The position numbers and the translations under genes are program-made. The notes below the pieces were generated by a model, which was not told where the DNA came from, did no database searches, and saw nothing but the letters and a program-made list of their open reading frames with translations. A DNA stretch of 64,000 bases from Paraspadella gotoi (lineage: Eukaryota; Animalia; Chaetognatha), in contig CM119266.1 in NCBI GenBank assembly GCA_051294375.1, positions 15,403,859 through 15,467,858 of the forward strand, read 5' to 3'. Positions 17,693-62,615 of the stretch are shown piece after piece (the first letter of the stretch is position 1; the number at the start of each line of letters is the position of its first letter).

Positions 17693-17746
<54 letters not shown>

Positions 17747-20700: not shown

Positions 20701-20923
20701 TCTTTACTATCTCTTTATTTTTGGGATTTCTCCATTTTTCATTTTCCGTTAGTATTTTTCACCAATTGTTTCTCTTATGATGCGATATAAAAGTTGATAC
20801 GAAAAAAAAGCTCTATTTTACTCTAGGTTATCTTCTCCGGCTCTGGGAAATAGAATATATGCATGAATTATATGAAATAAGTTGCTTTTACTTCCCTTTA
20901 CCAATTTAACGCTCTCTCTCTCT

Positions 20924-21015
<92 letters not shown>

Positions 21016-21503: not shown

Positions 21504-21553
<50 letters not shown>

Positions 21554-22032
21554 TGGCGTTTGCCTTCAACAATGGCGTCCTTGGCGGGGAATGTTCGTCG
21601 GCGGGTTATGAGACATTTAATGACTCGTTGAAGGAAAGACTGCGTCGCCTAAGAAAGGAAACGTGAGAGAGAAAAGAAAGAAAGAAACCAGAGCGTGCGA
21701 AAGGCGCAACTTCTCTGCGCGTGACCGACTGCTGTGGTTGTTGTTGTCCTTTCCTTCCTCGGACGCCCTCTGGTTGTTTGCTTGTTTCGTCGACATGCGA
21801 CGATAGCATTGAAAGAGTGGATTTTTAAAAAAAGTTTTGGAGGCGGACGTACTGAGGGAGTGAATGGACTGAACTAAGGAATCGAACGGACGGAAGGACA
21901 GACCGTCGGACTGACGGACGGACGGCGTCGATATTCTAAGAAAATGCGTTGGTTTTTTCTTTCGCGACGACAATAACGTCCAAGTGGTTTTCCGCCCATT
22001 TTGATCGGCGTAGTCGTCGCCAACGACCAAAG
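14905..22032. repeat. ~3.4-kb tandem duplication (14905-~18283 and 18428-~22032) around two 25-N gaps; probable gap-filling/assembly artefact
   Basis: Copies align throughout. 16956-~17530 appears identical to ~20740-21310, while the remainder differs mostly by dense 1-2 nt indels. Third partial copy at 18312-18402. N runs at 16931-16955 and 18403-18427. Confidence 0.85.
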
Positions 22033-38300: not shown

Positions 38301-39752
38301 CGTCTTATACAGCTTCGAATAAAAAAATATCGCTGTATTTTAGTTATTGATCCTCATTTAAAAAAAATTGTTATTTTTTTTGGTATAAACTAAATTCTAG
38401 CAATCTAATAAACACTGTTATGAAGCTAATTTTATAATGTTACTACAATATGCAAATAAGATGAAAAACTAATTTGATCACGAAATTTAAATTTCTTGTT
38501 GCTTCTCCAATTTTATGACGGACAATAATTTAAACTAAACCTATTTTCACTACCTATCCATTCGTAGGTGAACTTCATCGGTAAAGAATCACCTCATCCC
38601 TCTTCGGACAAGAAGAAAAAGACTCTCGCCTTCTCGCGCAAGTTTCCCTTCATGAAGAGCAAAGAGCAGCTGATGAGCGAGGAGGCCGAAGTCGCCGCCG
38701 CAGAACCGCAGCATCATTTGCAGCAGCAACCGCCGCCGGAGGAGCAAATCGACTCGTACGAGGCAGTCATTCAGGAGGACATCGATTACGCGCGGCCCGT
38801 CGTCGTCCTCGGCGTCATGAAGGTCCGTGCTTGCTCTTGACGTCGTTATTGTTCGTTAAAGGGATAAGGGGGGATTATTTTGGGGGAGAGAACGTTCGCA
38901 AAAAGTACGTGTTGTATTTTAAAAATGAACTGAAGGATTTCGAGACAAAACAGATTACAGAAAAACCAAAGACGAATCTTTTTTCGCGCACATATTTTTG
39001 TTTATTCTTTACCTTAATCATTGAAGAAACTCCTATCTTAACTATGTAACTATTTCTTAAACCTAAAAATTAATTTAATTTCTAAATTGGGCTTTTCACT
39101 ACTAACTGCTATTTTAACTGCAATTAACTGCTATCAAAGATCTAACATCTTCCCTTTTCCTTCTCTAGTTTTAATCCCCACCCTCTCTTTCCTCAACCCC
39201 CCTTCCCAGGACCGCATCAACGACGATCTCATCGCCGAGGACCCCGACCGGTTCGGGTCCTGCGTTCCTCACACGACGCGGCCGCGACGGGACTACGAGA
39301 TCGACGGTCGCGACTATCACTTCGTCGATTCTCGGGCGCGAATGGAGACGGACATCCAGAACCACCTCTTCATCGAGGCCGGCCAGTACAACGACAACCT
39401 CTACGGGACCTCGGTCGTCTCGGTGCGCGAGGTGGCCGAGGCCGGCAAGCACTGCGTGCTCGACGTCAGCGCCAACGCCATCAAGCGGCTCCAGGCGGCC
39501 GACCTCCACCCCATCTCCGTCCTCATCAAGCCCGCCTCCGTCGACGCCATCATGGACATGAACAAACGCGTGACGGAGGAACAGGCGCTGAAGACGCTCG
39601 AACGGACGCTCAAGACGGAGCGTGAGTTCGGCGCCGCCTTCACCGCCGTCGTCGTCGGCGAGACGCTGGCGGAGATCTACGAGCGAGTCAAGGAGGTCAT
39701 CAGGAGGGAGAGCGGCTCCACCATCTGGGTCCCGGTGAGGGATCCCGTTTGA
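35371..39752 (+). CDS. dlg1: Discs large (DLG/MAGUK) protein: PDZ(3)-SH3-HOOK-guanylate kinase
   Basis: Exons 35371-36156, 36310-36438, 37113-37343, 38568-38822, 39210-39752. Motifs [23 protein letters not shown] (PDZ3), [18 protein letters not shown] (SH3), [10 protein letters not shown] (HOOK), [37 protein letters not shown] (GK). The start codon is uncertain. Confidence 0.93.
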
Positions 39753-40720: not shown

Positions 40721-41969
40721 ACCGTTAGCGCCATCTACAAAAAAAAGTCCATGTACAAAAATTATCAGTTTGACGCATATGCGATACAATCATAGATTGG
40801 TTGATTCGTCCGTTCATTCCTTGTATAGATTAGTATATAGTGCGTGAATTTTAAATTAGTTCCCGTTGTATATGGAAATCTATTTATTGAAAAACGATAA
40901 ATTAAAAAAAAATCATGTTTGGGTCTACACGAAATATTGAACCATGAACGTACAATCAATCGTAAGTTATTCTTTAAGAATCATTCTCAAGATTTCTTCT
41001 TTGAGTTTTTTAACGAGCAGCCACGCTCCAATCATGCGCGCATTTTGAACCATAATTTGCAAATATTCACAGACGTCAATGGATGCGCGTTCAATACGCA
41101 TCATTAAAACGCAATTTATTTTCTTGAACATCACATTGTTTAATAATTTTTTCGTTCGCAGCGTCGTTTCTTTATCAGTGGCACTTATTAAAAAAAAATC
41201 ATTTTTTTACCATTAACTCACTAAATTCAAAAGAAAAGATTTTGTGATTTTTCTTTCTGGTTCTCACGCTCAGTCTGGCGAAGACAATGAAAAGGCAAAC
41301 ACGATGACGAGAGTTTGGAATCATGTTTTGTTGTAATAGAAATAATATCATATATTCTTTTAATGTATTTTTTATTTAAGAATTGAATTTGCTTTGCATA
41401 CTCCCGTGATTCTAAGCTCGTCAGTCATCTTGTCTGTCGATAACTATGCTGTGATGATGATAAATTGATAACTTTTTTCAATGATTAACCCAGTCGATCT
41501 TTTTAACATTCATGACGAATTAAATCTGAAGGCTTTATGATAATATCGAATGACGTATTCAAGAATGACAGACGGTGAGAAGGATGTATGGATTTTCAAC
41601 TAATGTTTGGGTTTTTACTTGTGTAATATATACTTTGGTGACTTAAACAAATCTTTCGTAGTTGTAGTATCTCTTCGTCCAGATTATCATTGATGGCTTT
41701 TTTTGTTAAATAAAAAAATGGATTATTCTGTGTAACATAAACCTTTACTACTCATCATTCTGTTATAAATAAACTGTTACGAAATACAAAAAAAAAACCG
41801 GACCTTTTTTCGGATTAAAAAAGGCAACGACTCATTGATTTTTTACCAATAGTTAACTACAAACTACCGCAATCTACTTTTCATTTTATTGCCAAAACTT
41901 TTTCTCGAAGATTTTTCGCTCGCCACTGTTTTCGTTTCTTTCAAATTCCCGGAAAAAAAAACAATTGGT

Positions 41970-43855
41970 TCACATTCGGTAAGTGACGTCTTCCTCGTGA
42001 GTGTCGATGCGCATCACGCTCTCGGACGGCTCCGTGTCCGGAGGCCGCTTCCACGCCTCCCTTGTAGTGACGAAGACGACGACGACGGCGAAGACGACGA
42101 GGACGATGCCGAAGAAGTTCACAATGTAGGCTGCGGGAGGCAATAGATGAGCGTGGTTTTCTCTGTCTCTCTCTCTTTGTCTCTCTCTCTCTATCCCATA
42201 GCTCTTTTGTTCTATTTTTCTCTTGCAGTTTTCCTGATTTACCTTCAGGTGGCCTCTTTGAGTAGGAACTGCCGAGACTGAACATCCCCTTTTCTAGGAT
42301 GCCAGTGAGCGCGGTCCCGATGCCGAGAGTGAAAATAGTCACACCGAAATATGTGTGAAGTGACAAGTAGGAACTTCGCAGCCATTCAGAGCGCCCTGTT
42401 AAATAAGGGTCGGATCGATACTTTTAGTTTAATAGTCTTCATGAGTAATACAAATATTTTATAAATTTACCATGACATCAAAACTTAATAGTGTCCGACC
42501 TGGAAGCAAAAAGATAAAAAACCCGCAGAGAAGTTGAAGGGAAAATAGAGCGACAGTCAAGATGCCCAGCCAAGAGTGCAGGCTGAAATAGTGACAAAAA
42601 ATATTCATGTGTTTTAACATTATAAAAAGTAACATTGTTCCGTAAAACATGAAGTTTCAATTATGTATAGTTGTATACGTGAAAATACCAAGCAAGAGCA
42701 GCCCAAAACAACGTCAGGAGTGAGGCGACTTACGATCGGTCTCCTGGCATTCCTCTCTAAACCTTCCTCTCTCCTTTTCCTTCGCGCCGGTCAATCTAGG
42801 GCAAGGTGACCGTTGGGATTGACCGGCGCGAAGGAAAAGAAGAGAGGAAGAGAGGGTTACGATCTTCAGTCGCCTCGTTCAACAAGTTTTGCCAAGTGTC
42901 TTTAACCATATATGTTAGGTTATGTTATAACATTGTTTTACCTATACAAGTTTGGAATGGGTGTTGCTGGAAGGTTGTGTGAATCGAAAACGGCCTAGGA
43001 ATCAAATGTATATTATATAAGTTATTCTGTTTCCTAAGTTTATTATTATTATTTTTATTGATTTAGAACACCTTGAGGGAAACGCCGACCAAAATAATGA
43101 CCAGTGCCTGTATCGCCGCATGGATGACTTTTACAGCAAACTTGGGCAAAAAGAAGAGAGCCCGGTAGACGATCATGGCTGTAATTGAGGAAAAAACTTG
43201 CACTGAACGCGGTATAAACTAGTAAGACGAATTTGAATTTTAAGCTGAGGCTACTTTTCTGGAAATCTCTTAAATGGCAAATTGTGAATTCATCGTTAAT
43301 TTTCCTACGCTCGGTGAGATGAAAGAGCTATCCTCCTTGGCATCCTATGTCCTGCTTTGCCCTACCTCCCACCTTGAGCAAAGAGGTAAATGAATCCCAC
43401 TGTCATGAGTATCGGGTGCCAGTTGAACTCGTGCTTGAGATCCTCAGTCCACGCCACGCCACCGCGGTAATCGATGAACCATATGAAGCAAAGCGCTATT
43501 ACCCCGGCCCCGAGGAGCTGTGGTCGGGGATGGCGAGAGGATTTTGAGAATTCTTGCGGATTTTACGATACGAGATTTGAAAAGGATATTGATATTTAAA
43601 CATTTAAATAACAACCACAGTGTTTTAGTGAGAAAAATTGAATTTGATAAATGAACATCGTACAACCAAAATTTACATTAGATTAAAACGTAAAACAAAA
43701 CAAGATTCTCAATCCTAACAGCACAAACAAAGGATTTGAAGCTGAAATTAATTCATTTTATTTTATTGTACTTTTATTTAACTTACCTGGATAAGAAGGA
43801 GGAATCCTCCGAATGTGAGCCATTCAAGCAATGACCAATTCGTTTTAGGATTCAT
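41970..43855 (-). CDS. Cytochrome b561 family transmembrane reductase
   Basis: Approximate exons 43787-43855, 43373-43517, 43072-43178, 42942-42994, 42500-42582, 42244-42395, 41970-42130. Motifs FNWHPILM, KVIHA, AVFDSHN..IPNLYSLHSWLG, SLHTYFG, ALTGILEK, WKRPP; four conserved heme-ligating His. Confidence 0.92.
42722..42876. repeat. Intronic foldback / MITE-like inverted repeat
   Basis: 42763-42796 pairs with 42817-42850 (33/34 bp, 20-nt loop); outer GAGGCGACT (42722) / AGTCGCCTC (42868-42876). Confidence 0.85.
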
Positions 43856-44657
43856 TTTTTTGCTCGTTCAATGCTCTCGCAGTTCTGAGTTCTAAAAGAA
43901 AAATATTTAATTTTATTTTAGAAAAAAACTTTCGAAACTGAAAAACTCGCTTCACGATAACTGAAAAAGTGAATCATTAAAAACATCGACGTCTGAAATC
44001 GAAGCCAATTTCTCTCGTTATTTTGTTGACATAAATCCGCCCTTTCTTGATAACCAGGTTTTAAATTGGAGGTCGAACTAATCAAATAATCATTAAATCA
44101 CATATCAGTGAGAGAGAAAGAACTCAAAATGTAACTAACCATGTAAATAATCAGATTCCTATTCTGATTCTTTTTTGCTATGACCTGTCTTTGGGATGAA
44201 GTTCAAAGTAATACAATTTCAGTGATAACATTTTAATCAGTTCATGAAGAAAAAAGAAATTGTAGAAAACTTTAAATGAGACAAATTAAAAAAAATTTCT
44301 CATTTATTTTTTATTCATGCTTATTTTTTGCTAGCTATTTGGGCTAACAAAAATAGTGGTGCTCAGTTAAATTGTGAAGTGAGAAGATTGGCAGTAACGT
44401 TTCAACTTTTTATGACGAAAATAAAAATTTTATATCAAAGCTGAAGAATGAAGATTCATAGTGGTATCAGAGATAAGCAAGCAGTTAAAGCGATCAAAAC
44501 TGTAAATTATAAAGAAGACTGGTGAATATATATAACATTTTAGGTTAACGATTGGACCTTTTGTCTTCAACTAACGTTTTTATAACTGCATTGTTTAACG
44601 ACGTCATTTTTAACAATCCTCGATGCAAATTCCTTTTGCAAGAAATCGAGCCTCTCC

Positions 44658-46261
44658 CTATCCACATGACGTTATTTCATTCCAGCCCTGTTTTTCCTCC
44701 TCTTCCACCATCCCTTCCCCCAACTTCTCCCCCTTGAATGACCCCAGAATCTCCACCGGAAGAGGAAAGACGATGGTTGAATTCTTTCTGGACGAAATCT
44801 GCGAGAGAGTCTGCAAGTAGCGAAGCTGCAACGCCGCCGCATTGGCGTCAATGACTTCGGCGGCCTGCTGAAGGGCGCGGGAGGCGCGCTGTTCGCCCTC
44901 GGCCGCAATGACCTTGGCTCGAGCCTCGCGCGCCGCCTCCGCCTCCGCCGCCATGGCACGCTGCAGCTGCGCCGGAAGCCTCACGTCCTTGACCTCCACC
45001 CGTTCCACCTGCCATGGGAAAGAATCGAGCACATTCGTCGCAAATGAATAACTTTTAAAAATACGGCATTTTCTTTTCATTTTTTGAAAAATTTCTTAGA
45101 AGATTAAATTATTGCACCACATAATTGCTCCTGCCGAAAGATATTACGTAGAATTATTCCGATTTTAATTCTGTTAATAAAGATATAAGCGGATCACTAA
45201 TTTTGTACCTTGACTCCCCAAGGGTCTGTCGCCAGGTCGAGACTCTCTTGCATGTTATGCGAAATGGTGTCGCGGTCCGACAGAACTTCCTCCAGCTTCT
45301 TGGTGCCCAGGACGGTTCTTGCACACGGAATATTTAATTTTATAAATTATTAGTATTGCTTTATCATCCGTGGTATCAACAAGAAAACTTACCTCAGCGT
45401 GGTAGCTGCCAATAGCCTCGTGGACCGAGGTGCGTCCACGACGTTGGTGACGCTCATCGTCGGGTTGAAGATACTCCAGTAGACGACGGCGTCGACGGCG
45501 ACCGTCACCGAGTCTTTCGTCAAAATCTCTTGCTGCGGAACGTCGAAAGTCACCTGGAGACGACAAGACGGTTAAAGTGTCGGGATGAACGAGGATGAGT
45601 AAAGTAATGATTATTTTGATGGTCCATCGAGTCCAATTAAAAATAATCAACTGACAAACAACACACCGTTCTGAGATCGACGCTGATAAAGTCGTCGACG
45701 CAAGGAAGAACAAAGAAGATTCCGGGTCCCTTGGCACGACCGCCTTTGAGTCGACCCAGTCTGCCAAAAATAAATCTGAACAGTGAACAAACTGAACATA
45801 GCTTTTCTATTCACGACTACAAGCGATCTTTAGTAGACCCTCATCGCCCTCACCCGTTGGCATGTAAGGTAGCGGGATCGCCAGATTTCTTTACTTCTAC
45901 AATCTACACCCTCCAAAGCCCTACCATTCCCCATTCCGAATCAAACCTTCCCTCTCTCCGAACCCCTCTCTTCATCCCTGCGGTCTCGCCCCCAAAAAAA
46001 CCTGAAGATGACGGCGCGTTCGTACTCTTGAACGACTTGGAGAGAAAAGCAAAGGGAGAGTGGGAAGAGTGCGACGACGAAGAGGAAGGAAACGATCGTC
46101 AGCGTCCATCCGAAGCACCCGATCTCGGCGCCGAGTCCAGCGTCATTCCCGCCGCTGTGGTCTCCTGACGCAGCGTCATCGGAACAGCCTCGCGCGCGAC
46201 GCTGGTCGGGACTCCATCCGTTCGGGATCATACTCTCCGCCGAAACGGATTTACTCGTCAT
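44658..46261 (-). CDS. Stomatin / band 7 (SPFH) protein, MEC-2-like
   Basis: Approximate exons 46002-46261, 45667-45760, 45393-45553, 45209-45317, 44658-45008. Motifs [107 protein letters not shown]. Confidence 0.95.
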
Positions 46262-46427
46262 GCAGTTTTGGGTTTTATTAGGGAGATTTGGGGGTTTTCG
46301 TTGTTGTATCTAATTAGGTTTTTTAAAAAAAACGAGATTTGTACTGTTCGTTGTCCGGCTTTTTCTTAATTTCTTTTCGATATTGTTGGGAGAGTAACGG
46401 AATTTAAATTGCGCCGTCATGAGCGGA

Positions 46428-47240: not shown

Positions 47241-47950
47241 TCAGTTGAAATAAAAATTATACTTGACGAGAACGAAGACGAAAAAATAGAATTGCAGAAA
47301 AGAGACTGGGGACGACAGCGTCAAACTATGGGCAGAAGAAGATTCGTCCGTTTCGTCGTCATCATCGTCTAGTCTTTTGTTCGGAATGATTCGGTCTCTC
47401 CCTTCGCACTTAGTCCACTGCGAGGACACCTGGTGACGGAATCCGGAAGTTTTTTAAAGTTTTTTTTTATTGAAAACGATTTTAAATATATTATAAATCT
47501 TAATATGTATAAATCAAAGAAAACAAAATTTTTACAATAATCTCTAGATAAAGTTATAAACTGGCTTCACCGTCAAAGGACCATCGATGACTTCTTTAAG
47601 CTGATTGCTGTAAACCCAGTAGTAACGTCCTTGGATAAAATATATGTTGTCGTCCGTCCCTGAGATGAATGAAAGTAATTTGTTTCAAGAAATGAACGAA
47701 AGAAATTTCTGTAGTACTCACCCTGTAGTACCGCGTCGAGCGGAAACGCCGGCACGCCTCTCCACTCCGCGACCGATTTGGGATAACCGTAGAACATTTT
47801 CCCGCGCACCTCGTCGAACTTCCAGTAGCTTTTTTCTGCCAAAGTCATTTAAAAAATTCGACAGAATAAAATTTTGAATTATGAAATATTGAATATACTG
47901 TTTTCTATACATTGTATGTAAAACATACTAAATATTATTATTATTCCCCC

Positions 47951-47998
<48 letters not shown>

Positions 47999-48670
47999 TC
48001 TCTTCTCTCTCTCTCTCTGCTCTCTCTCTCCTCTCTCTCTCTCAGCCACTTTTTCCGATGCAGATGACACACATGAAATTAGCATCATTAAAATCCTCCT
48101 TTTTTTTGACAAAAGTCACTTTTCTGAACTCATTAGTACAACAAAATTAAAACGACCGTGTTACTTTAACATCATTATCGATTGCACCCCAAAAAAAGTA
48201 TTAACTGTATATATTTTTGCGTAGAAAGCCAGTAAGATCCCCACTGGAGGCTCAAATTCAAGCGCGGTATGATTTCGAACTTACTTCGCGCCTCCGCGTG
48301 GGACTGGGATTAACCCAGTTCACAAGTAAACTACTAAGTCGATGATGAAGGTCACCTACCTCCTGAACGTAAAACCGTGAGGAGAAGTGAAATCTGAGGC
48401 ATTGACCCAAGTTGTTTTTCGTGTATTACCGAAATTTATTAAAGGCCTTTTAAGGCCTAATAAATTGTGTCTATGCCTTGACTGCCGTTGAAACTTCTGT
48501 TTTTTTTTTTCTCATCTGGGTCCTTCTCAGTTAACATTTAATTATGAAGGTCCCTCACTTTCTCCAAAGTTTATGACGAAACTAGACATCCTTCAGAGAC
48601 AGTTTTTTTTTCAGGTTTCTTGAGGCCTTGCTAAAATCAAATGTTATAAAAAAGTGGAACCAAAATAGCT

Positions 48671-48742
<72 letters not shown>

Positions 48743-51700
48743 TCTCTCTCTCACGGTCAAAGAAGTAGGTGTGTGTCTTGAACTGCCACACGAAGGCCGC
48801 GTCGATTTTCTCGAGTTGCGGTGGGAGGCCGAGGACGGTGAGACGGAGAGGCCCGCGGACGAGGGCCACGCCATCGAACTCGTAGAAATACTGACCTGGA
48901 GATATGGCATTGTTATAAGAACATAAAAATAAACAAACCAACAAACTTGACACGTGAATTATTTAACTAAGCCAATAAATCTCCCTCTTACTAAAGAATT
49001 ATCATAGTAAGGCGAATATATTGTAATAAAACTAAAATAGAAAGAGCGTAAATACTGAAATATACCCTTGAAGAACATGAGATTTCCGTTAGGCTTTTCG
49101 TAAACGGCGTCCACGGACTCCTCCGGGTACTGCGTCCAAAACGTCGCCAGTTTGAACGGACCATAAGTCATCGTCTCTTTTTGAACTCTCCAAAAGTATT
49201 TTCCTGTGAATATTAACGCGAATGGCGATGTTCCATTTGAATTTTTTTTATTAAAACATTAACTTACCCTTGAAAAAGAAGACTTCCCAAAACCTGACGA
49301 CGGAGGCGGCGTCGAAATTCGTGTCGCAGGTTTCAGGGACGTCGTCGTCCGGTGGCGTTGGTGTCGTCCATGTCGTTGGCGTCGTCTTTCTCGTCGTCGT
49401 TTTGGTGTGTCGTTGATCGAAGATTGAGTTGCCGTCTTCCGTATCACCTGAATTGGAAAAAGAACTTGTCGATTCCTGACCATAGAACAACAGTTGTCGA
49501 CGGTTTCCACTCACCATATCGTTTTTGTATCCCGTTAATATCGTCCGAATCTAATTTAAGATCTTCCTTGTAGCCCTAAATGTTGTTTTTGGAAAACCAG
49601 TAGAAATAATTTTTTTTAAAATTCAATATAATTTTAAATATTTTGTAGGATGCCAATTTTATTTATGTACCTTGTAATACGGCGTCATTATTGCTTCGGC
49701 AACAGGGGAATGACCAAGACCGAGAGAATGACCGATTTCGTGAACGGCGACGGTGAAGAATTCGTAACCTGAGAAATAAAATATATAGTATACGTATTTA
49801 AAATATTTACAATAATATGCCTTTAAGTCGTTCGACTTACGAGTAAAATATTTTTTGTGCGACGAAAATAAAGAAAATAAGACGACGAACGCCGAAATAA
49901 CATCCATTTTATGGCTCGACTTTTTTTTATTTCGAGCTGCTCTTTTATAATTTTATAATATTCCGCGCCCCTTGCTTTTATTTGATTTACGTGACCATCA
50001 ATTCTACGGACGAAACGACGAAGTAGAAACAAAAAAAAATTATCTTTTTTTTATTTCATCCTTTTATTTCTCTGGAAATCCCGGTGATCGAACTTTATGA
50101 AGGAAAAAGGAGGAAAAGAAAATCGGAGGAAAGGAAAAGAGGAAGAGGAGGAAAGAGAAGAAAAGAAGAGGAGGAGGAAAAGAAGAAAATAAGGTGTAGC
50201 TATCGTCTAGGGTCCAAAAAGTCGAAGGAAGCGTTCAAATTAAATGAATAGTTTTAATACTTTGTCCAGTGGCCATTATCACGAATAGTGAAAAACTATT
50301 TCAAATTTAGAATCTTTGAATTTGACAGTTGTCTTAAAAAACGTCAAGGAAACGAACCATAAATCTTTGACAATCTTTGAAACAATTTTCATCTTCGACA
50401 CAAATGATTTAGATTGACTAGCACTTTCCACGTTTTCTTTCCTGTCGCGTCACGCTTTTTGGCGCGCAAAGACTCACAGTCTCACACTCACTCGCGAAAC
50501 GCGGGAGTAAATAAGAATCACATGTGATGAATTCGCGATTTAGGGGTCATCCGGCCAAACGCTCGACGGTGCGACTGAAAGTTAGACGTTGCCCTTGGCA
50601 ATTTTGTATAAAGTTAGAATTAGACTTATTTAAAAGACTTATTTAAAAGACTTATTTAAAAGACTTATTTAAAAGATTTATACAATAATATAAAAAATCA
50701 AGAATATCACATGCATTATATTAGAACCTATCTTTGTGGTTTGCCACGAGGAAAATTATTAATTCTATACAATGAGAGTAGAAATTTGAATGATCATGAA
50801 TACAGAAATTTGCGAGATGGCATTATAATGATATCAGATATACGATTATTTAAACCAGTTTTAACGGAAAAAATTAGAGGGGGAGAATATTACCACATTA
50901 ACTTTATAGATAAAGGCTTAGACTATATTAATCTTGGTGGAATTTTAAATAGTAAAACCATACAAAACAAAATACCAGTGTATTTTGATTGCAGGGAACC
51001 CCCAATGGTGGGATATGGATATGGTGGGAGCATAGCTGGTTTAATGTTTAATTATAGAAGATGCTTGAAAAATGAGGATGTTAATAATATTGATATGGAT
51101 TTGATGGTCTGTGATTGCGAAAATTCTACATTTAAAGATCCATATCATTATCATATTATCACAGGTAATTTGAATATAATAGAAAATGAAAATTTAAAGA
51201 AAATTTTGAAAAAAGGGCCAAAATGTAGACTGCCTGGAAAGGTGGGTTGGATAAAGGGTATGGATAATATGGCAGACTTCATAGATGTATATGCTGGGGA
51301 TTGGATAGGGAGAGAAAATCAGGCCAATAAAGACACAAAAATAAATATCAATGTTTTAAATGTATGGAAGAAGGAGGTTTTAAATTTAGTTAAAAAACGG
51401 ATAGAATATTGCAAAAATAAAGTTAAAAATACTTTCCCATTAAATGTTGCGGGATCTTTAAAAACTGAACTAAATAGATTACAAGATAAATTTATAATAA
51501 CACCAGCAGACAGGGCTCAAGGCAATATTATTTTTACATGTAAAAAATTCTATTACAAAAGATTAAAAGAAGAATTAATAGACTCACAATCATATAACTT
51601 CACTAATGAAACCGCTGAAAGTATCAATAAAAGAATAGCTAAATTTGGTGAAGATTATGGAATTAAAGTAAAAGACGAAATGAAAGAAATTCCTATTATT

Positions 51701-54700
51701 TATTTTATTCCTAGGGTGCATAAAAGTCCTACAAAACAAAGATACATGGCGGGCTCTAAGGTATGTTCTCTCAAGGCAGTATCTAAACATTTTTCAAAAT
51801 GTTTAAAGCTAATGCTAAAACATCTTAAAGTATACTATCAAGTAGTTTTTCAAAGATCTGGAATAAAACATTATTGGATAGTTGATGATTCTTTGGAGTT
51901 TTTGGAAAAAATTTCTCAATTAAAAACAGATTTTCTAGAAACATATGATTTTTCAACATTATATCCATCACTTCCTCATTATGAAATCGGGAGTAGGCTA
52001 GAAATTTCATTCAGAACAATTTTTTCTAGGGAAAATAAAACATATATAAATGTAAATCATAATAAAGCTTATTTTTCAAATACTAAGAATAAGGGATATA
52101 TTTCTTTTACTGAGAAAGATTTGAGTGTTGTCCTCGACTTTATTTTAGATAATGTTTTTGTCAAATTTGGCTCCTTAATATACAAACAAACATTAGGAAT
52201 ACCAATTGGACTAGATTCTGGACAGGATGTTGCCAATGTGTTGTTATTTTATTTTGAATCAACATATATGGAAAATATGTCAAAAAATAATTTAGGAATC
52301 GCAAGACAATTTAAAAATTGCTCAAGATATATTGATGACCTTTTTTCGGCCGATTTTAGGGATTTTAAAATACATCTTGCCAACATATATCCAGCAGCAC
52401 TTACTGTAAATAAATCTAATAGCACAGATACAGATGTAGATTATTTAGACATTAACATTAAATCAGAAAACAAAAATCTTACTCTGTCTGTTTATGATAA
52501 AAGGGATTCCTTTTCTTTTGAAGTGGTTAATTACCCATATATGGACAGTTGTATTCCTAAAGGGGCAGCACTGGGTGTGTTTGTTGGCCAATTAATAAGA
52601 TATGCAAGAATATGTTCGACGTTTACAGATTTTTCATCAAGAGCTATAAATTTAAGCAAAAAACTACAAAGTCAGGGTTATATATTTAAGGACTTAGGGA
52701 AAATGGGAATTAAATTTTTTAATAATTATAAGGAGCTAATAAATAAATATAATGTTACTGATGTTAATCTATTTTCAAAAAAGATTATACATGATAGTTC
52801 CTAATAAAAATGACAGGAAAAAATAACAAAAATAAACCACTAAGTAATAATTATAATAACAACATCAACAATATTATTTAAATAACTTATTTAATTTATT
52901 TAACTTATTTAACTCTCTGATTTAATTTGTTTTTTAACTTTTACCAATTAACTTATTGTTAACTTTGCATTAACATACCCTTAATTATTAACTTATTATT
53001 AAACTAATTATTTAACTTATTTTATTTATTTACAAATTACAAATTATTATAAAACCTTAATAAAATTTCTCTAAAATTAATAATGCTGTGATGCCAGGGC
53101 TTTGGTCTGTTTCAGATAAACATTCAAGATATACCTTTAAAACATAAGATAAGCAACAATGAAGGATCACCATTTGGTGATGGCTCGCCTATACCTGGAT
53201 ATTGGGATTAAAGAGCCGAAATCCATGAAGGGTATAGGTTCCCAACTGATGACCTTCCCATTGTATAAAAATAAAAGATAAAAAATATTCAAAAAAGAAA
53301 TAATTAAAAAATAGGATAAAGAAAAAACAAAATTTTCATTAAAATATTTTAAAATTATATTCATGACATAAAGGTGCCCCTATAGACCTTTCCCCAGTGT
53401 GTATCCCTATCGGAGCATGCAGTTCTGCATGGTGGTCTTATCCCTATTGGTAAAAAAATCATATATAACGTTGGTCCCTCAAAAAATTATCCATTCCCAC
53501 CCCTTTCTGTTCGGCCTCTTAGATATTGTGATTTTTCATTAATGACTTTCTAACAGAAATGATGTGTGATATCTATTGGAAAACTAGGACAGATAGTAAT
53601 CTAACCTTGTGTTGTATAGATGCTCCCTCTATTTCCAGAAGACAACACTGACTTCCCCTTCCCAGGTTGTATTATTAGATAAATAAAACATTTTTAAAAA
53701 AGAAAGCAATATATGTTTGAATAAATAATATGGATTAAGTGATGAATCCTTCATAAAAATATTAAAATATTAAAATAGAAAAATGAAAAATAGTGAGACA
53801 AGTAATTTGCAAATTTTCATAAGAAACTGGAATTCACAAACGATCACAAGATCGTCCAAAATCGGAATTGTACATGGTTGATCTCTCAAAAGCATGAATG
53901 TCCCTCATCCGAGTGTGTTTTTACTTGAGCCAAAACAAAACAAATGAGAAATCAAAACAATCCCATACACCTCTAAGTCGACAGTCGGCATTTTGAAAAT
54001 ACCCAGGGCGAGAGCAACACTGAGCCAACAAATGAGAAATCAAAACAACCCCATACACCTTTTAGGTCCACAGTCGGCATTTTGAAAAAGCCCAGGGCGA
54101 GAGCAACACTGAACCAACGTTATTAACACCACCGACGACGACACGAAAAGGACCGTCCCAGAATTTTAGGCCCTTAAAGTCGAGTTTCGACGAATGTTGA
54201 TCGTCGTCACATCGTCGCTCTCAGCGTCGTCGAATATGGGGAAAAGTCACGAACTCCTTAATGGTCGCGTTTGTTTTCTATTTGGTCGTCGTTCTCGTTG
54301 TCGTTGTCGTCGTCAGTGTCGTTGTCGATGTCGTTGTCCGAAATCATAGAATACCATGGAGAGAAAGAAAGACTAAGAATTAAGAGAGAGAGAGAGAGAG
54401 AGAGACTCACTCTGATCGACGTTTACACCGACGACCCAGGATTCGTCGTCGTCGAAGTGAATGTCTCCCCCAACATCTTCTCCCGGCGCGAAGGCGTGGG
54501 CGAGCACGCGGTCTGAACAAGGGATGATATTAAATTAAATAAATATTAATTTATTAATTACCTTCAAAAATTTTTTTCACTATCTCACTAGGGCCGTCGA
54601 ACGGATAAATGTCTCCGTGATTCCATCCCCCGAAGTCGATCCTAATGTCGGCGCCGAAACATCCTTGCGTTCTGTTGAAACAGGCTCAACTACGTTGCTA

Positions 54701-55078
54701 TTTTGTCTAAATTTATTTTTAAAACCAACATATATCGTTTTAACAGACCTGATCATGTCGAATCTGAATGGGGAATTTTGAGACCAGAGGGCGAATGCTC
54801 GTCGGACGCTGGATTCTTGATCGGCCCAGTAGATACGACGACTGTGTTTCATGAAGCTGAAAGATGATCGTAATATTAATAGAAACCAATACGTGATTTT
54901 AGGGACGAGGAAAACGACTAACATTCGTTCATTTAGTAAATTAAAAACTCAACAACGCAATGGTTAAGTCATGACGCCTCATTGTTTGAATTACGAAGGG
55001 ACACTTGGGCCCACAAGATTAATCCCTTCATTTGCATTCTGCAATTTGCACCCGAAGCACACGAGAGAAATGCCCAGC

Positions 55079-55112
<34 letters not shown>

Positions 55113-56555
55113 AATCAAACTTATCCTCCCTTTTCGTGTAACCGAATGATTGGCCCATTGTCAAAATTCCCCTCGTCCTCCGTTGAAAACTGCGACGTTT
55201 TTCCTTCCGCATAAAATTATCAACGAGCAGGAAAAGGTCCCAACCTTGACAGTGTACTGCAAATTGAAGCCTATGATCTAATCCTTTCATTCTATTACAA
55301 CTAGTACTGCTATTTTATATCGTTTTATGCGGGAGGAGCCAATGAAGCCAAAATTCACCACTACGTACTAGCTATTTAGGAAAACTCACCAGTAAGTGAG
55401 ATGCTTTTTTCTCCACACATCTCCGTAGACCGTGAATCGTTTAGCACGTCTCCTATTCAATCCGGTTCCCCCTTCCTCGTACACGAGCTCCGCCGAAGCT
55501 GATCGTCGTCTCTCAACATCCGGGCGACCGCATCGAGGAGACCGCATTAAAGCTAGTGTAGCTTGGTCCAGTTCGCCGGTCTGACAGAAGATTTGATTTG
55601 ATTGATTGCAAGTTATGACACACCGATTGATCGATACATTGATCCATCGATTTTTTTCACATTACCTCCTCCACATTGCCAAACTTTTGCATGTTCTTGA
55701 TCGCACCCCTTACGCTTGTGTCAGACATCAGGGCTCTCATCCCGTCTTGGGATTCGAAGCTCGGCAAATAACCGTAGGATTCCAAGAATTTCTGTCAAAA
55801 TGTTTATTGGTTAAAAATGGAAAATATTTAAGGATTCCCCAACCTGAAAGTTACATTATTCAACTTATGAAACAAATCAATTTTCCGTTGTCTAACGTTT
55901 CCAGATGTATCGTGCTTTGTTTCTATCGCGTGATCTTTCGTGATCGACGAAAGCGCAAACAACTGAGTACAACGTAACATCTGGAAAGCGTAACCCGAAC
56001 GATCGTATCTCTACGTTCTAATCTTTTTCTTCCAAATTACTCGAATATTTTTAGCGTAAAATTTCTGCCTGGAAACGAGAGAAACGTACTGAAGATTAAA
56101 AAGTATCGATTTTCGGCGGGAATCTCCGAGGAATCGCGTTGTCTATCCCTCCGGTAAACTCTCTCTCTTTCTTGACGAGCCTTTTTCATCGGCAGACATT
56201 GAAGCTTCGTCAGTCAGTCAAAGCCTTTGATTAACGAGCAAAACGACCTCTTTCGACGCAACAATGTTTTTTCTCTTTGTCTCAGAATCCAGGTTTATCA
56301 CCTTTACTCATTCGGGTCTCGTGTCTCCTTTCTTCTTTCCGATTAGCTCTGTCCCGTCCGCTATCCTTCCCTCCCATATTTTGTTTCCTTTTGTTTTCTT
56401 TAGTTTTTAATTTCTCTTCGAAGGAAAATAAAAGAGAGAGAGAAAAAAAAAGTTTCAGGTTCTAAAACTTCTCCTTTTTTTATCCTTGCCTTTGCCGCGG
56501 TCACGCGTCTATCGATCGGCGCCCCAGGGGGACCAGGAAATTTTATGCTAATTCA

Positions 56556-56609
<54 letters not shown>

Positions 56610-59600
56610 TCGAGCGTGATCGCCCGGTAACAGTAAAGCCACTTCATCGACCATCAAAATACGAACCAAAAATGCATAGCACTGTTCCAATACCCCCCCT
56701 TTTTGCCTCTTTCTCTTTTTTCACTCGTTAACCCTAAAGGCCCAAAGTTCCCCTGGGGACGAAACCCCGTGGGGCAGAAGGTGAAACATAAACAAAAACA
56801 ATGAAAAGATCTGAGGCGATGAAAGCGATGAAAAGAAAGGGTTTTATACTTTCGACTCTTTTTTTTTTCATACTTCTTTTCTATTTTTATTTCTTTTTTT
56901 ACTTTCTTCTTTCTTCTCACCTAATTATTTTCAGATTCACAATACAATCTTCATTTTTTTTTCATTCCTTTTTCATTTTTCCATCTCAAATTCTATTAAA
57001 CGAAAATCACGGGGGAAGAGATCGAATTTAAATTTTCGCGCGACGGGAGGCGATAGATTTGGATGCACGTATGGAGTAGAGAGGATGAATAGACAGTGGA
57101 GAAAAGAGAGGTGGTGTTGAACGGGAGTTCGAGGGTGAAAGGGCTTCGGGAATTATCGCAGTAATTTGAAAAAATAAATTGAGAAATCTGGAGATGGTCT
57201 TTTCCAACGATCGAAACGCGTGCGTGATTTCGTCGATCAATGAATATTTCATCTCGACTTAAAACGATGACTATGAATTTCATTTAAAAATGATTTTTAA
57301 TTTACGAGTCAGTCGAATCATCGTGCCAGGCCGGGAGGGCAATAAACGTAAACCGTCGTTAAGCAAAAGAAAAATGAGAAGAATTAATTCGATGGTCGTT
57401 TGTGATTCGCTGAAAAACAAAAAGGGAAAGCCGTGAATCGAGACTCGTAAATCTTTTCACTGCTTCACTAATCTTTTGTCTTTCTTCCCATAGTCCAAAA
57501 AATGAATCACTCGCACCGAAAGAAAAACATATTAGTCAATCGTCAACTGACAAAATATGAATTTTCTCAAAGGAAATTTAATCTAACAAACAATCAAAAA
57601 ATAAAAGGAGTGGCTTCTTGGCCTGGATGACTTGACGAAAGATTGAAAAAAAATGTAGGGGGTTAACGAAATTAATAAAAAGTTGAAAAAATATTGACAT
57701 GATTGCTAGGGCAATTGTTCTTGGATATCGACCATGTTACAAGCTTTAACTTGACTAAAAAAAAACTAACTCAAGATTAAAATATTCTTTCGCTTTAATG
57801 CCTTGCAGACTTTTGACCAAAGAAGAAAAACATAAAAAAACTAAAGAAAAAAGAAAAAGAAAGTTTTAATGGCGACGACGCGTGTCTCGGTATAACGATG
57901 TTGACTCCTTTATTAATTCCTAGACAAAACATAAAATCCGACGAAAACGAGACAAGAAAACATCGAGGAATTTAAAACGACGTCGACGACGACGACGACG
58001 ACGATTTAACGACTTTAGACCCTTTTTTTTTCATCAAGTTTTCTTTTCTCGGCTAAAAGAAAACTCCCCGGAAACGTTCCCCCCTTCCCCATATGGAGCG
58101 AGATATCTGAGAAAAGGCATCGCCTAAAAACCGGCGACCTCCCGCTAATCGCTTCAATCGCCAGCGTCGAACCAACATCGCCTTTTTCTTTGTTTATTTG
58201 TCGCTCACGGGAGGTGATTGTGATAAAGAGGCGAGGTGATTGTGATAAAGAGTCGAGGTGATTGTGATAAAGAGGCGAGGTGATTGTGATAAAGAGTCGA
58301 GGTGATTGTGATAAAGAGGCGAGGAATGCGCTGACCTTCACAAGACGATGACGATTTCGCCACGGACCAGTTTTTTTATCGGGTCGATCTCGGCACAAAG
58401 TTAAAAAAAAAATCCTAAAAGGAGAGATCCCGTCGACACATTTTTCATAAGATACTTTTTTTATTGTTAAAGTTTTTTTACCACCTCATTAAAATTTATA
58501 AACGAGAGACGCCCTGTTATGGCTTGAGACCGAGCAAAATTTAAACAATCTCCGATTACCAGTTTCCCACCCACCCACCAAAGAAGAACCACCAACCCCT
58601 GCCCCCCTACCCCCTTAAATCCGACTCACCAAACCCTCAAAGATCTGAGATTTTGCTCCTTCATTTCCCCCGTCATTTCGGTCTCCTCCTCCTCCTCCTC
58701 CTCCTCCTCCTCCTCCTCCTCTTCCTCTTCTTGTTCCTCCTTCCTCCAGGATCTTTTCGTCTTCGCTCGATCTCTCGTTCCTCCTTCTTCCGACATCCGG
58801 CTTCCAGTTTATCGTTCGTCCGCCAGGATTCGATGACCAATCCGATAAGTTCGATTTCGCGACGGAGAGAAGCGGCTCGAAGGACGACGACGACGACGAC
58901 GATGAAAAAGACGAAAGTAAAGACGACACGGAGGAAATAGACGTCGCTGTTCTTTTGTTGACGTCGACGCCGATCCAGCGGCGAGAGGCGACCGGCAACG
59001 ACGCGGCGAGAGGAAACGCGAGAAGGCAAAGAAAGTAGAAAACGAGAACAGAGGAACGTCGGAAACTCGCTAGGAACGGACGGAAGGCTGGAGATTCGAA
59101 GGCGGAGGGGAAGACGTTGGAATGCGTCGTCATCTTGGAATGAGTCGAGTGTTTGAAGGAATTTGGAGAGGACGAGGTTGTTAAAGATAAGTTAGAGATT
59201 TTCCTCGAGAGGCCAACCTTTCTTTTGACAGGGCGAGGGACGTTCGTCATTTTTTCGGAAGAGGTTTTATAAGCGACGAGTCTCTCTACTTCGAAAAGGG
59301 AAAAGGGTCGCTGTCTTTTGGTTTCCTTTTCTATTCGATCGAAACGAGAATGGAGTTTTGCGGTTTTCGATTTAGATTTCAGTTTCGCGTCGAAAGGGCG
59401 AAGCCGCGACGAGGGGAAATCGTTTATATAACCATCGCCAACGGAGGACGAAAATTGGATTATAGGACAGACAGATGACGATGACGACGATGCTGATGAC
59501 GACGACGAAGAAGCCGACGACGGCGAGAGTGATGTCAACGAGGCTTCGATCGAAACGTCCGGTTGATTTTCCGTCGTGACCTTATTTGGAATCGCCTCCT

Positions 59601-59658
59601 TTAGTTCCGCTTCAGACGGAAGAAAATTGGTTTGTGCGTTGGCGTGGCGACACCTCAT
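47241..59658 (-). CDS. Matrix metalloproteinase (M10A) with hemopexin domain and hydrophobic C-terminus (membrane/GPI-type, Mmp2/MT-MMP-like)
   Basis: Approximate exons 58631-59658, 55666-55791, 55391-55579, 54749-54856, 54588-54671, 54411-54512, 49671-49768, 49514-49575, 49268-49447, 49066-49203, 48755-48895, 47722-47835, 47572-47659, 47241-47429. Cysteine switch PRCGRPD, furin site RRAKR, HGD.YPFDG, LAHAF.PG...[29 protein letters not shown], hemopexin repeats. The start ATG is uncertain. Confidence 0.93.
48338..48400 (+). ncRNA. Candidate box C/D snoRNA (antisense to the MMP intron)
   Basis: C box ATGATGA 48342-48348, D' CTGA 48363-48366, C' GTGAGGA 48377-48383, D CTGA 48394-48397, short terminal stem GTC/GGC. 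Confidence 0.4.
50620..50676. repeat. 13-bp tandem repeat (AGACTTATTTAAA)x4 at the PLE 5' junction
   Basis: Four perfect units directly upstream of the RT reading frame. Confidence 0.92.
50711..52804 (+). CDS. PLE reverse transcriptase (CxC linker + RT + thumb; N-terminal GIY-YIG endonuclease absent from this copy)
   Basis: 697-aa ORF with CDC....[14 protein letters not shown] (CxC/DxxHxH linker), [72 protein letters not shown]. The ORF ends after the thumb with no C-terminal EN, matching the described N-terminal-EN Naiad/Chlamys layout. Confidence 0.88.
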   Translation: MHYIRTYLCGLPRGKLLILYNESRNLNDHEYRNLRDGIIMISDIRLFKPVLTEKIRGGEYYHINFIDKGLDYINLGGILNSKTIQNKIPVYFDCREPPMVGYGYGGSIAGLMFNYRRCLKNEDVNNIDMDLMVCDCENSTFKDPYHYHIITGNLNIIENENLKKILKKGPKCRLPGKVGWIKGMDNMADFIDVYAGDWIGRENQANKDTKININVLNVWKKEVLNLVKKRIEYCKNKVKNTFPLNVAGSLKTELNRLQDKFIITPADRAQGNIIFTCKKFYYKRLKEELIDSQSYNFTNETAESINKRIAKFGEDYGIKVKDEMKEIPIIYFIPRVHKSPTKQRYMAGSKVCSLKAVSKHFSKCLKLMLKHLKVYYQVVFQRSGIKHYWIVDDSLEFLEKISQLKTDFLETYDFSTLYPSLPHYEIGSRLEISFRTIFSRENKTYINVNHNKAYFSNTKNKGYISFTEKDLSVVLDFILDNVFVKFGSLIYKQTLGIPIGLDSGQDVANVLLFYFESTYMENMSKNNLGIARQFKNCSRYIDDLFSADFRDFKIHLANIYPAALTVNKSNSTDTDVDYLDINIKSENKNLTLSVYDKRDSFSFEVVNYPYMDSCIPKGAALGVFVGQLIRYARICSTFTDFSSRAINLSKKLQSQGYIFKDLGKMGIKFFNNYKELINKYNVTDVNLFSKKIIHDSS
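53940..54118. repeat. Two tandem ~88-bp direct repeats downstream of the PLE
   Basis: caaatgagaaatcaaaacaa.cccatacacct.ta.gtc.acagtcggcattttgaaaa..cccagggcgagagcaacactga.ccaa occurs twice with ~7 mismatches. Confidence 0.9.
58211..58324. repeat. 22-bp minisatellite, 5 units with alternating G/T variant
   Basis: GAGGTGATTGTGATAAAGAG(G/T)C x5, order G,T,G,T,G. Confidence 0.95.
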
Positions 59659-59751
59659 GCTTCCGCCAATGCAAGGGATCGATTTTCAGGGACTGAAGTG
59701 ATTATCGCGCGAAAAAAAGCGTGATGAGGAAATGATGAGAAAATCTGTTTA

Positions 59752-61070
59752 CAGGGACTTCAATCTGGACCGATACGAAAAGGCTTTATGAAACTCGTAA
59801 TTCTTTCGCTGTATATTTTTTTTTTATAATATTTATTACTTGACGATTAAGTTGACCTAAAAAATGTTAAAATTTCTTAATAGTATAATCACAGTGGCTC
59901 CCAAGCACGGAGTCACTTTTCTTCATTTTTCTGATTGTGAAGTTATCTGATAGAAAAATTTTAAAAAATGGCGATAAAAAAATATTTTTTAATTTTTTAT
60001 GATAAAAATTTTTAATGTAAAACCTAACTTACTTATTATGGTAACTAATATTTATTAACAAAGTCGACTTTCATAATTTTTTTCCCCCTAAACCAAAATT
60101 TTTATTTTTAATAGATTTTAAAGGGAAAAAGTAATGATTATTATCAAGTATTATTCATATTATAAAAAAATTTGGTTCATGATACATATACTACAGTATC
60201 TAATTAATAAAAAAAAGATTTAAAAAAAATACAATTGTTATGAAGGATTGATAGCAAGATCTACTTTTAAAGTAAAAATTCTGCTTCTTCAGATATTTAC
60301 CCTCTGAGGTAAATGTTTATAACATTATAAAATTATATTCATGACATAAAGGTGCCCCTATAGACCTTTCCCCAGTATGTATCCCTATCAGAACATACAA
60401 TTCTACATGGTATTCTTATCCCTATTGGTAAAAAAAATTATATATAACGTTGGTCCCCCCTCAAAAAATTATCCATTCCCACCCCTTTCTGTTCAGCCTC
60501 TTAGATATTATGATTTTTCATTAATGACTTTCTAACAGAAATGATGTGTGATATCTATTAGAAAACTAGGACAGATAGTAATCTAACCTTGTGTTGTATA
60601 GATGCTCCCTCTATTTCCAGAAGACAACACTGACTTCCCCTTCCCGAATTGAATTATTAGATAAATAAAACATTTAAAAAAAAAAAAAAAAAAAAGAAAG
60701 AAAGCAATATATATTTGTTTAGATAATATAGATTAAATACTAAATCCTTCATAAAATATAAAAATAGAAAATAGTGAAACAAGTAATTTGCAAATTTTCA
60801 TATAAGATATAACACTGCTATGTCATTAGTTTCTAAGAAAGATGGAAGCCTTAAACTACCAAAACCTGTCCAAAGTCAGTGGCAGGATAGCTTATTTATT
60901 AAATGAATGGATAATTTTTGTATTGGTTGTACCAATTTCATAGCAGCTATCCTAGCTAGAATGTTACGAATCGGTAAATAATCGAATAAGAAAAAAATTT
61001 ACAACCTGATTGCTTTTAATTTCGATTATATTACAAGTTTTTTTTGTATCACTCCAGATTGAAGTCCCTG
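59752..61070. mobile_element. Non-autonomous TIR DNA transposon (CAGGG ends) with nested PLE fragment
   Basis: CAGGGACTTCAATCTGGA at 59752 and its reverse complement TCCAGATTGAAGTCCCTG at 61053-61070; imperfect match extends to ~30 bp. No clean TSD seen. Confidence 0.78.
60328..60942 (+). mobile_element. Solo 3'-region / pseudo-LTR fragment of the Naiad-like PLE
   Basis: 60328-60802 aligns with 53348-53821; 60815-60942 aligns with 27772-27899. Confidence 0.85.
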
Positions 61071-61428
61071 TCGTTGTTTTTTTTTCTTCGTTTTTGTATT
61101 AATTGTTGTCATCGAAAAACCGGAGCCGACGTCGACAAAGAGAGACGATTTAAGGCAGAAACTTCAATCGTGACGAGATTTTGACTTCGGGGCAAAAAAA
61201 TCGAGTGATTTAGTTGTTTTTCCCGTCGCTCGATCTTCACTCTGTTTTTTCACGACCAGGCCGACCGCGAGTCTCTATTGTGATTGGATTAAATTTTAAT
61301 TTCATTATGTTTTTCCGAGAGACTTCGTGGCGAGAGAGTGAGAGATTGAAGGGAAAAAAAGTAAATGGATGGATCGTTTTCTTTATTTGAAACAAGATCC
61401 GAGACGTTATCGTGGAGAGGGAGAGAGA

Positions 61429-61494
<66 letters not shown>

Positions 61495-61972
61495 TCGAAC
61501 GAGGGACCACCGAAAAAAGGGTTTAGGAAATTTAAAAAAAAAAAAACGAAAAAAATCAAAAAGAAAATAAATATAAATCGAAAAATGAAAACAAGAAAAT
61601 AAAAATAAGATAAGATTTTTCTTTCAGTCTTTTTGTTCAGAGATAGACATCGCTTCGGGAGTAAATCATTGAAATTGTGTTTCTAAAATGGAATAGAATA
61701 GAATATAATGACAATGTACTTAACCATAATCAAAATTCCTACTGTTATTGAGTTTATTTACAGTAATTTACGACACTCACACTAAGGATTCAGATTTAGA
61801 GGTTTTCCTGTTTTGTTTTTTTTCTCACTTATCCTGTAATCATAAATTTGATGGCAATGTTTTTTCTGATAAAAAAAACATATTCGTATATTTTTCTTTG
61901 GTTTGTCATAATTTTTTCGTCTGAGCTCAGTTGATATCTTACCAGGAAATCTTTCTTTTTCTTTTTTTTTTT

Positions 61973-62615
61973 AGTCGGATCTGCTTATCAGCAGATTCCG
62001 ACTCTATAATTCACTTTGTCGGTCCGTCGGTCCCACCCATAAATCTTGTCGGTAAATCATTTTTATCATATCAGAACATCATATTATGCTAAATTAAGCA
62101 ACAAAAAAAGATGTCCATCCGTCCGTCTGTCCATCTGTCCTCCCTCCTTAGCAAAAAACTCCAATTACTCATGATTGGAATGAAATTTTGTGTCTGGGAA
62201 GGAAAGTGTGTGATTGAGCTGGATATAAAGTTTTGATGGAATCGCGAGAGTGGAAATGAGTGTAAATGAAAAAAACAAAAGTCACATTAACTTAAATCTT
62301 TTTACTGATTTTAACCAATAATTACTCGAATTAATCATAATTGGATGGTTAGATTGAGATTAAATTTTGTATGTGGGTAGGAAAGTGTGTGATTGAGCAC
62401 GATATAAAGTAGTTAAAAATAATTATTTGTACTTTATTGGTAATTATTTCTACTATAGTATTTATTTATTCATTTGTTTGTTCATTCGTTCGTTCGTTTG
62501 TTTGTTCGTTCATTCATTAATTTATTTATCTATTTATTTATCTATTTATTTATTTATTTATTTAGCTGATTACCGCTTAATTATCGTGGGCAGATCCGAC
62601 ATTGTTTGCTCAAAC
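61973..62615 (+). mobile_element. DINE-1/HINE-like non-autonomous Helentron element
   Basis: 5' subTIR GTCGGATCTGC with adjacent partial inverted repeat, GTCY-type microsatellite (~62113-62140), two diverged internal repeats (aaattttgt...ggaaagtgtgtgattgagc..gatataaagt), 3' subTIR GCAGATCCGAC (62590-62600), short stem-loop GTTTG-CT-CAAAC, poly-T on both flanks. Confidence 0.8.

Follow-up and report, generated by a model that had tools for sequence, protein, structure and literature searches.

A sense-strand A-to-G hypermutated Naiad-type retrotransposon copy in a chaetognath genome, probably reverse-transcribed from ADAR-edited RNA

The window analyzed here (the whole stretch of 64,000 nucleotides from Paraspadella gotoi) holds two copies of the 3' end of one retroelement, which differ mainly by G in the one where the other has A. 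The locus raises the question of which copy has changed and by what agent. The two stretches are as follows.

53348..53821, + strand: 3' untranslated end of the element in the 53-kb copy; 17 to 18 A-to-G sites among about 184 As, including a tract at 53399-53434 in which 7 of 13 As are changed.
60317..60802, + strand: sibling of 486 nt, unedited, consisting of the 3' end of the element only; the sole other element match in the window, with the family A at the tested sites.

A first-pass annotation, made by eye, had described about 18 sites with G in the 53-kb copy and A in the 60.3-kb copy, and 1 or 2 in the opposite direction. The global alignment of 53348-53835 with 60328-60810 gave just this picture: the 31 mismatches comprised 18 G/A sites (53-kb copy first), 2 A/G, 2 C/T, 0 T/C, and 9 transversions, with a binomial P of 4e-4 for 18 versus 2. 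Alignment of the same two copies by BLAST gave 32 mismatches, including 18 G/A, 2 A/G, 1 C/T, and 1 T/C. The 5' neighbor of the 18 sites was T at 10, A at 6, C at 2, and G at none, in agreement with the reported order of T, then A or C, and almost never G, and CpG accounted for 2 of the 18 sites, again as reported. In the 3' stretch alone, the depletion of 5' G (0/18 versus 23/167) had a P value of 0.13, and it became significant once the whole element was counted. The claim that the changes are clustered held for dense tracts across the element, while clustering within 53348-53821 alone was only modest (7 sites in 36 nt, equalled in 511 of 20,000 shuffles). Position 53797, which is among the 18 sites, probably represents a variant common to other copies and not an edit.

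The other duplicated pairs of at least 100 nt within the window were used as controls, and each was unbiased. The pair 16191-18283/19898-22030 had 5 G/A, 11 A/G, 6 C/T, and 5 T/C differences, the pair 14905-16076/18428-19841 had 11, 8, 6, and 4, and the pair 27772-27899/60815-60942 had 3, 5, 2, and 0, respectively.

The complete 53-kb copy and its parts were delimited as follows.

50622..53822, + strand: Naiad-type Penelope-like retrotransposon copy, 5'-truncated, about 3.2 kb, defined by contig depth, open reading frame, and homologues; sense-strand A-to-G hypermutated throughout.
50622..50676, + strand: 5' junction, where the 13 nt that begin the retained element are present four times head-to-tail (copies at 50622, 50635, 50648, and 50661).
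50660..52804, + strand: open frame of 714 codons, with linker, CxC region, reverse transcriptase (RT), and thumb; the N-terminal GIY-YIG endonuclease is lost through truncation.
53155..53265, + strand: rod-like hairpin (z = -3.8 versus 200 shuffles), with no edit cluster listed inside.

The element had correctly been called Penelope-like in the first-pass annotation. More exactly, motifs and homologues, rather than a tree against named Naiads, identify it as a 5'-truncated Naiad-type copy. The Naiad clade is diagnosed by an N-terminal GIY-YIG domain and by the CxC, DKA, and GxKF/Y motifs (PMC8557442). The 53-kb copy has in common with this clade an RT with CxC, DKA-type, and GxKF/Y motifs, the 5' truncation, and the lack of a canonical hammerhead, and its closest full-length relatives carry the N-terminal GIY-YIG domain; the assignment follows from these motifs and from the GIY-YIG domain of the relatives. 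The CxC motif of the copy is C151-D-C153, upstream of the RT and aligned with the CxC of the relatives shown. In the DKA motif, column 285 is K in 100% of relatives and R in the 53-kb copy, and in the GxKF/Y motif, column 189 is Y in 89% of relatives and C in the copy; both are A>G-type changes.

The open frame had 53 homologues at E <= 1e-10, the best of which were 46-60% identical across the whole length. Full-length homologues have about 910 residues with GIY-YIG at the N terminus (three relatives were scanned, one of which scored below the curated cut-off). The protein of the 53-kb copy is 59% identical to residues 195-902 of P0176, its closest full-length relative; GIY-YIG occupies residues 52-103 of P0176, and the protein of the copy starts at the match to residue 195. 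A Pfam search of the 50660-52804 frame matched no family.

At the upstream boundary (about 50660), the contig depth of the family rose from about 17 to hundreds, and it came back down after about 53830. A flank contig from run X1 matched without difference up to 50651, that is, into the 13-nt array. The array could be due to telomerase-like stutter, in which the cDNA end is realigned on the template, or to later slippage. The 13-nt unit at 50622-50676 also carries a short terminal redundancy. The longest repeat between the two junctions was 6 nt, which is not meaningful as a target-site duplication. A partial-tandem pLTR or an inverted 5' copy is frequent in Naiads and not obligatory (PMC8557442). 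The 53-kb copy differs in this respect, as no second element match adjoins the insertion. In 50000-62000, no Rfam hammerhead family was matched at E up to 5. Inspection by eye showed core words resembling those of hammerheads near 53180-53255, in an order that is not canonical. Rfam gave no credible match, and the hairpin at 53155-53265 had none at E up to 5.

The hairpin sits at the 5' edge of a 3' region that is far more abundant than the open frame; the summed contig depth of the family 3' part is hundreds to thousands of times the flank depth. This high-copy 3' region is probably a non-autonomous derivative family. The sibling at 60317-60802 is a member of this much more abundant non-autonomous or truncated class.

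We then asked which copy had changed. The family evidence came from Logan contigs of nine runs of one organism, of which eight were compared; such contigs drop rare variants. Four runs from three studies were compared over 50300-54000, and places were counted from a 5% share, so that family polymorphism is included in the following counts. Places with G in the window and A in the family numbered 84, 87, 83, and 90 in the four runs. The mirror class, with C in the window and T in the family, numbered 17, 15, 15, and 19, which is 4.7 to 5.8 times rarer (binomial P below 1e-11 in each run), and T-to-C changes are thus not as frequent as A-to-G changes. Places with A in the window and G in the family numbered 24, 20, 20, and 17, and those with T in the window and C in the family 9, 13, 11, and 10. 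Among the best 40 of 267 difference rows, chosen by support, 31 had G in the window and A in the family. These 40 rows included 7 of the 18 pairwise sites, at which the family A made up 98-100% of the depth in each of the four runs, and loose contig ends gave the family A at several more of the 18. Four further runs, compared over 50940-51470 at a 40% share threshold, had G in the window and A in the family at 16/25, 14/21, 14/20, and 13/20 of the differences, and the mirror class at 0 to 1.

The bias spans about 50800 to 53800 and is densest within the open frame. The annotated span of 53348-53821 thus carries a real bias and accounts for just the final 15% of the affected element. By a rough estimate, 100-110 sites with G in the window and A in the family lie among about 1300 As, of which 15-20 would be ordinary divergence.

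The protein relatives gave the same polarity independently. In 234 columns that are 90% conserved in 42 relatives, the 53-kb copy departs 33 times; A>G explains 16 of the departures and T>C explains 2. In a leave-one-out control, A>G-type departures per 100 columns were 6.8 in the copy, whereas the 42 relatives had a median of 0.4 and reached at most 2.1. Since the family contigs of eight runs read A and the relatives agree, the 53-kb copy is identified by both comparisons as the derived one, and the change as A-to-G on the sense strand across the whole insertion. The earlier statement that the 3' contexts do not suit G-to-A mutation of the other copy by APOBEC is in line with the family A at the sites.

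In the contig pieces listed for eight runs, none spans a dense tract without differences. Depth was 0 at 51246-51299 in the four runs compared over 50940-51470, and the family form joins across this gap in X2 and X8. The best runs contain 0.62-0.64 of the sampled words of 49000-55000, or about 0.28-0.32 of the element interior if the flanks are fully present. Private letters of other classes in the copy are missing as well: at positions 50838, 51068, 51149, and 51415, every listed run differs from the copy at 100% of depth. Because contigs drop rare variants and these other private letters are also missing, the absence of the dense tracts from the contigs is no evidence that they are absent from the DNA. 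As a counterpoint, some low-depth variant arms from other copies survived in the contigs. Both junctions are present without difference in the X1 DNA contigs, and the insertion therefore exists at this site in the X1 sample. A protein search found no fragments identical to the 53-kb copy.

The dense tracts outside the 3' end are the following.

51008..51046, + strand: dense tract, G at 8 of 17 positions with a family A (contig difference tables).
51241..51312, + strand: densest tract, G at 16 of 30 positions with a family A within the 54 comparable nt (loose contig ends, by eye).
52562..52586, + strand: 6 clustered sites within the thumb region, at which the family A makes up 100% of the depth in four runs.

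In the densest tract, the family contigs no longer align, all 16 differences in the 54 letters are G for A, and the count splits into 8/14 and 8/16 As. The fraction of As changed in four tracts was therefore 8/14, 8/16, 8/17, and 7/13, compared with a few percent elsewhere.

The neighbor context was analyzed on mapped sites. The difference tables (best 40 of 267 rows), the loose ends, and the pairwise alignment gave 76 sites, which are a subset. Five of them (50991, 51028, 51376, 52525, and 53797) were dropped as polymorphic or shared in the family, leaving 71, and the results for 76 sites agree. Only 1 of the 71 sites was preceded by G, compared with 179 of the 1244 unedited As (P = 5e-4), which extends the ADAR neighbor rule beyond the original 18 sites; in the fully compared stretches, the numbers were 1/52 versus 54/363 (P = 0.007). 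The change rate in the fully compared stretches was 0.20 after U, 0.13 after A, 0.04 after C, and 0.02 after G. A 5' C was likewise rare (2/71). A 3' G was enriched (19/71 versus 146/1244; 11/52 versus 38/363 in the fully compared stretches), and 3' A was neutral. Some of the 3' Gs may themselves be unlisted edits, which would inflate this enrichment.

In the 76-site list, 32 of the 42 codons with listed sites change the residue, and near-invariant motif residues are among them. The frame nevertheless stayed open over 714 codons, since an A-to-G change cannot create a stop codon. Depletion of an upstream G is an ADAR motif common across Metazoa, and invertebrate ADARs were reported to favor a 3' A (PMC5625713).

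We consider it probable that RNA of the element was edited by ADAR and then reverse-transcribed into the germline, with ADAR named from the signature in this single copy. The first-pass annotation had proposed reverse transcription from an ADAR-hyper-edited RNA, and the polarity, the strand bias, and the avoidance of 5' G all support it, the agent again being read from the signature. The event is placed at the RNA stage because the sense-strand bias requires that the sense strand be present by itself when the change occurs.

In this reading, a sense Naiad transcript would pair with antisense RNA of the element and become partly double-stranded. Possible sources of the antisense RNA are an inverted copy next to the donor and intronic copies in antisense orientation, of which the 53-kb copy is one. 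Such RNA is plausible because Naiads are commonly accompanied by inverted 5' copies and the family 3' part is highly abundant. The partner would lie outside the copy, since the retained 3.2 kb are without a long hairpin. ADAR would convert A to inosine within the paired patches. Reverse transcriptase reads inosine as G, so that the RT of the element, copying the edited RNA, would turn each inosine into G. The RT of Penelope-like elements (PLEs) copies RNA at nicked AT-rich DNA (PMC11167929). Target-primed reverse transcription would have stopped short of the endonuclease region, and the product would have been fixed in a germline intron. The copy is predicted to have been dead on arrival, as it has no endonuclease and most of the mapped in-frame edits alter residues. 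For this reason, the mobilizing protein would have come from unedited RNA or have been made before editing.

We searched the retained sequence for a double-stranded substrate. No long inverted repeat was present in or beside the element, pairing of the five dense tracts with other parts of the element did not exceed that of shuffles, and the sibling folded no better than shuffles (z = 0.41). Predicted pairing at the As of the sibling that match the sites was 0.60 versus 0.38 at other As (P = 0.009). This excess was set aside because A-rich loops confound it and the region folds no better than shuffles.

Several observations were counted against ADAR editing. These were the 3' G enrichment, the low 5' C, and the failure to find a substrate in the retained sequence. 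Two 25-N gaps in the window, flanked by indel-rich duplicates, were also counted, since they are blemishes of the assembly. A further point against it is that no editing was detectable when ADAR1 restricted L1 in a cell assay (PMC5224506).

The leading alternative is an assembly artefact, in which the Gs came from RNA-derived or error-prone sequence and are not genomic. The Gs are known here from the assembly and receive no DNA support from the Logan contigs, and N gaps with indel-rich duplicates are what gap filling with noisy reads would leave. A-to-G clusters have been ascribed to RNA-derived traces before (PMC2873906). Against such an origin, the flanks match DNA contigs at 0 to 1 differences, the other duplicates in the window are unbiased, and the 714 codons run without a frameshift. 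The systematic error known from sequence traces turns G into A in AGA/AGG motifs (PMC2873906), which differs from A-to-G changes that avoid a 5' G. The orientation of the host gene also bears on this point.

49662..54534, - strand: host matrix-metalloproteinase gene (PF00413), with the element antisense in the intron between two matrixin-domain exons.

Positions 71-106 of the PF00413 profile were matched in frame 54376-54534 and positions 102-138 in 49662-49952, both on the minus strand, and hemopexin exons follow further down the gene. Because the element is antisense to the host gene, local host transcripts and their editing would yield the opposite bias, T-to-C on the + strand. We regard the artefact as unlikely.

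Polymerase error is less likely still. Here, the RT of the element or a second-strand polymerase would have placed C opposite A or G opposite T under skewed dNTP pools, a misincorporation mechanism that comes from work on retroviral hypermutagenesis. Many of the sites do lie in A runs, and the 51 groups include 6 triplets, 5 doublets, and 1 quadruplet; however, A runs are also expected from the 5' A/U preference of ADAR. The sites avoid 5' G and favor 5' U over A, and patches changed at 50% stand beside long stretches changed at a few percent, neither of which fits such an error.

An even smaller chance is given to DNA deamination at the locus, in which minus-strand host pre-mRNA hybridizes with the + strand and ADAR or another deaminase edits dA after insertion. 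This predicts the strand observed, and ADARs can deaminate dA in DNA:RNA hybrids of model substrates; the substrates in question, however, had A-C mismatches, and the enzymes were mutants (PMC12925331). About 90 events would be needed in one young copy, and there is no reason for the changes to end at the element.

Opposite polarity, with the 60.3-kb copy and the family mutated from G to A by an APOBEC-, RIP-, or CpG-like process and the 53-kb copy ancestral, is hardly credible: 10 of the 18 sites in the pairwise alignment have TG opposite TA, a pattern that by itself is RIP-like, but opposite polarity is refuted by the family contigs (the whole family in eight runs has A) and by the protein relatives (at 46-60% identity, they carry the A-coded residue at near-invariant columns), the host is an animal, and 2/18 sites are CpG.

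Probable ADAR editing of the element RNA has precedents. RNA editing is normally not inherited, and the idea that ADAR-edited element copies become fixed in genomes has been proposed in reviews. A-to-G hypermutation of the ADAR type is known in Rous-associated virus, avian leukosis virus, HTLV-2, and STLV-3 (PMC12925331). As in the 53-kb copy, the changes there are clustered A-to-G on one strand, reach up to about half of the As, and are attributed to RNA editing by ADAR followed by reverse transcription; the cases are exogenous vertebrate viruses with inverted-repeat or LTR substrates (PMC12925331). In contrast, the 53-kb copy is a cellular non-viral retrotransposon in the assembled genome of an invertebrate, with no substrate hairpin in the copy. 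APOBEC editing of LTR retrotransposons is similar in that hypermutated copies are fixed and can be recognized from their strand bias, clustering, motif, and polarity relative to a consensus, but the change is sense-strand G-to-A through cDNA, whereas that in the 53-kb copy is A-to-G and appears to date from the RNA stage (PMC4866542). The genome-wide screen for edited retroelements used a G-to-A filter on LTR elements and found invertebrates devoid of them; ADAR is unmentioned in its main text and in the supplementary text searched (PMC4866542). Hyper-editing of repeat RNA in Metazoa likewise has A-to-G clusters in repeats and a strong upstream-G depletion, but it is seen in RNA reads against an unedited genome, whereas the present pattern is in genomic sequence (PMC5625713). 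The 3' G enrichment of the 53-kb copy resembles the mammal/reptile group, not the invertebrate group, of that study (PMC5625713).

In the main text of the Naiad paper, the string "hypermutat" is absent and "editing" occurs once (PMC8557442), and the text of a preprint on retrozymes and PLEs leaves ADAR unmentioned (10.64898/2026.07.22.740005). Within the open literature searched, which excludes subscription papers, we found no description of Penelope-like or other non-LTR element copies that were edited by ADAR and fixed in a genome.

The 53-kb copy, although single, would extend the ADAR-type pattern to a new clade and a new host, in an animal group for which the published screen of edited retroelements sought G-to-A only and found none. 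If the Gs hold in reads, A-to-I editing has been written back to germline DNA by a Naiad element. It would follow that the RT of a PLE accepts heavily inosine-substituted templates and that the element RNA encounters ADAR in cells whose DNA is passed on. A cheap test, by genome sequence only, would then be available for restriction of retrotransposons by ADAR through mutagenesis, which went undetected in the L1 cell assays. We tentatively propose, as a possibility against which the balance still leans, that germline ADAR acts as a mutagenic counterpart of APOBEC in invertebrates, where APOBEC editing of retroelements is lacking. It would edit PLE RNA, a telomerase-related RT would copy the half-inosine tracts, and the crippled products would be inherited, so that the specificity of germline ADAR and past double-stranded RNA could be read from the genome alone.

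Other features of the window were also recorded. At 14905-22030, two indel-rich duplications flank 25-N gaps at 16931 and 18403, and they look like gap-filling artefacts. The pair 27772-27899/60815-60942 is a second short repeat, 86% identical, which adjoins the 3' end of the 60.3-kb copy. Just 3' of the 53-kb element, at 53939-54118, a unit of about 90 nt occurs twice in tandem (91% identical) and is present in DNA contigs. Host genes at 35365-39752 (+ strand), 41944-46309 (- strand), and 47547-55794 (- strand) include Discs large (PDZ and guanylate kinase), cytochrome b561, stomatin/band 7, and the matrix metalloproteinase. Discs large, stomatin, and the metalloproteinase point to an invertebrate animal as the host. 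Named matches were 70-74% to arthropod Discs large and 62-71% to vertebrates.
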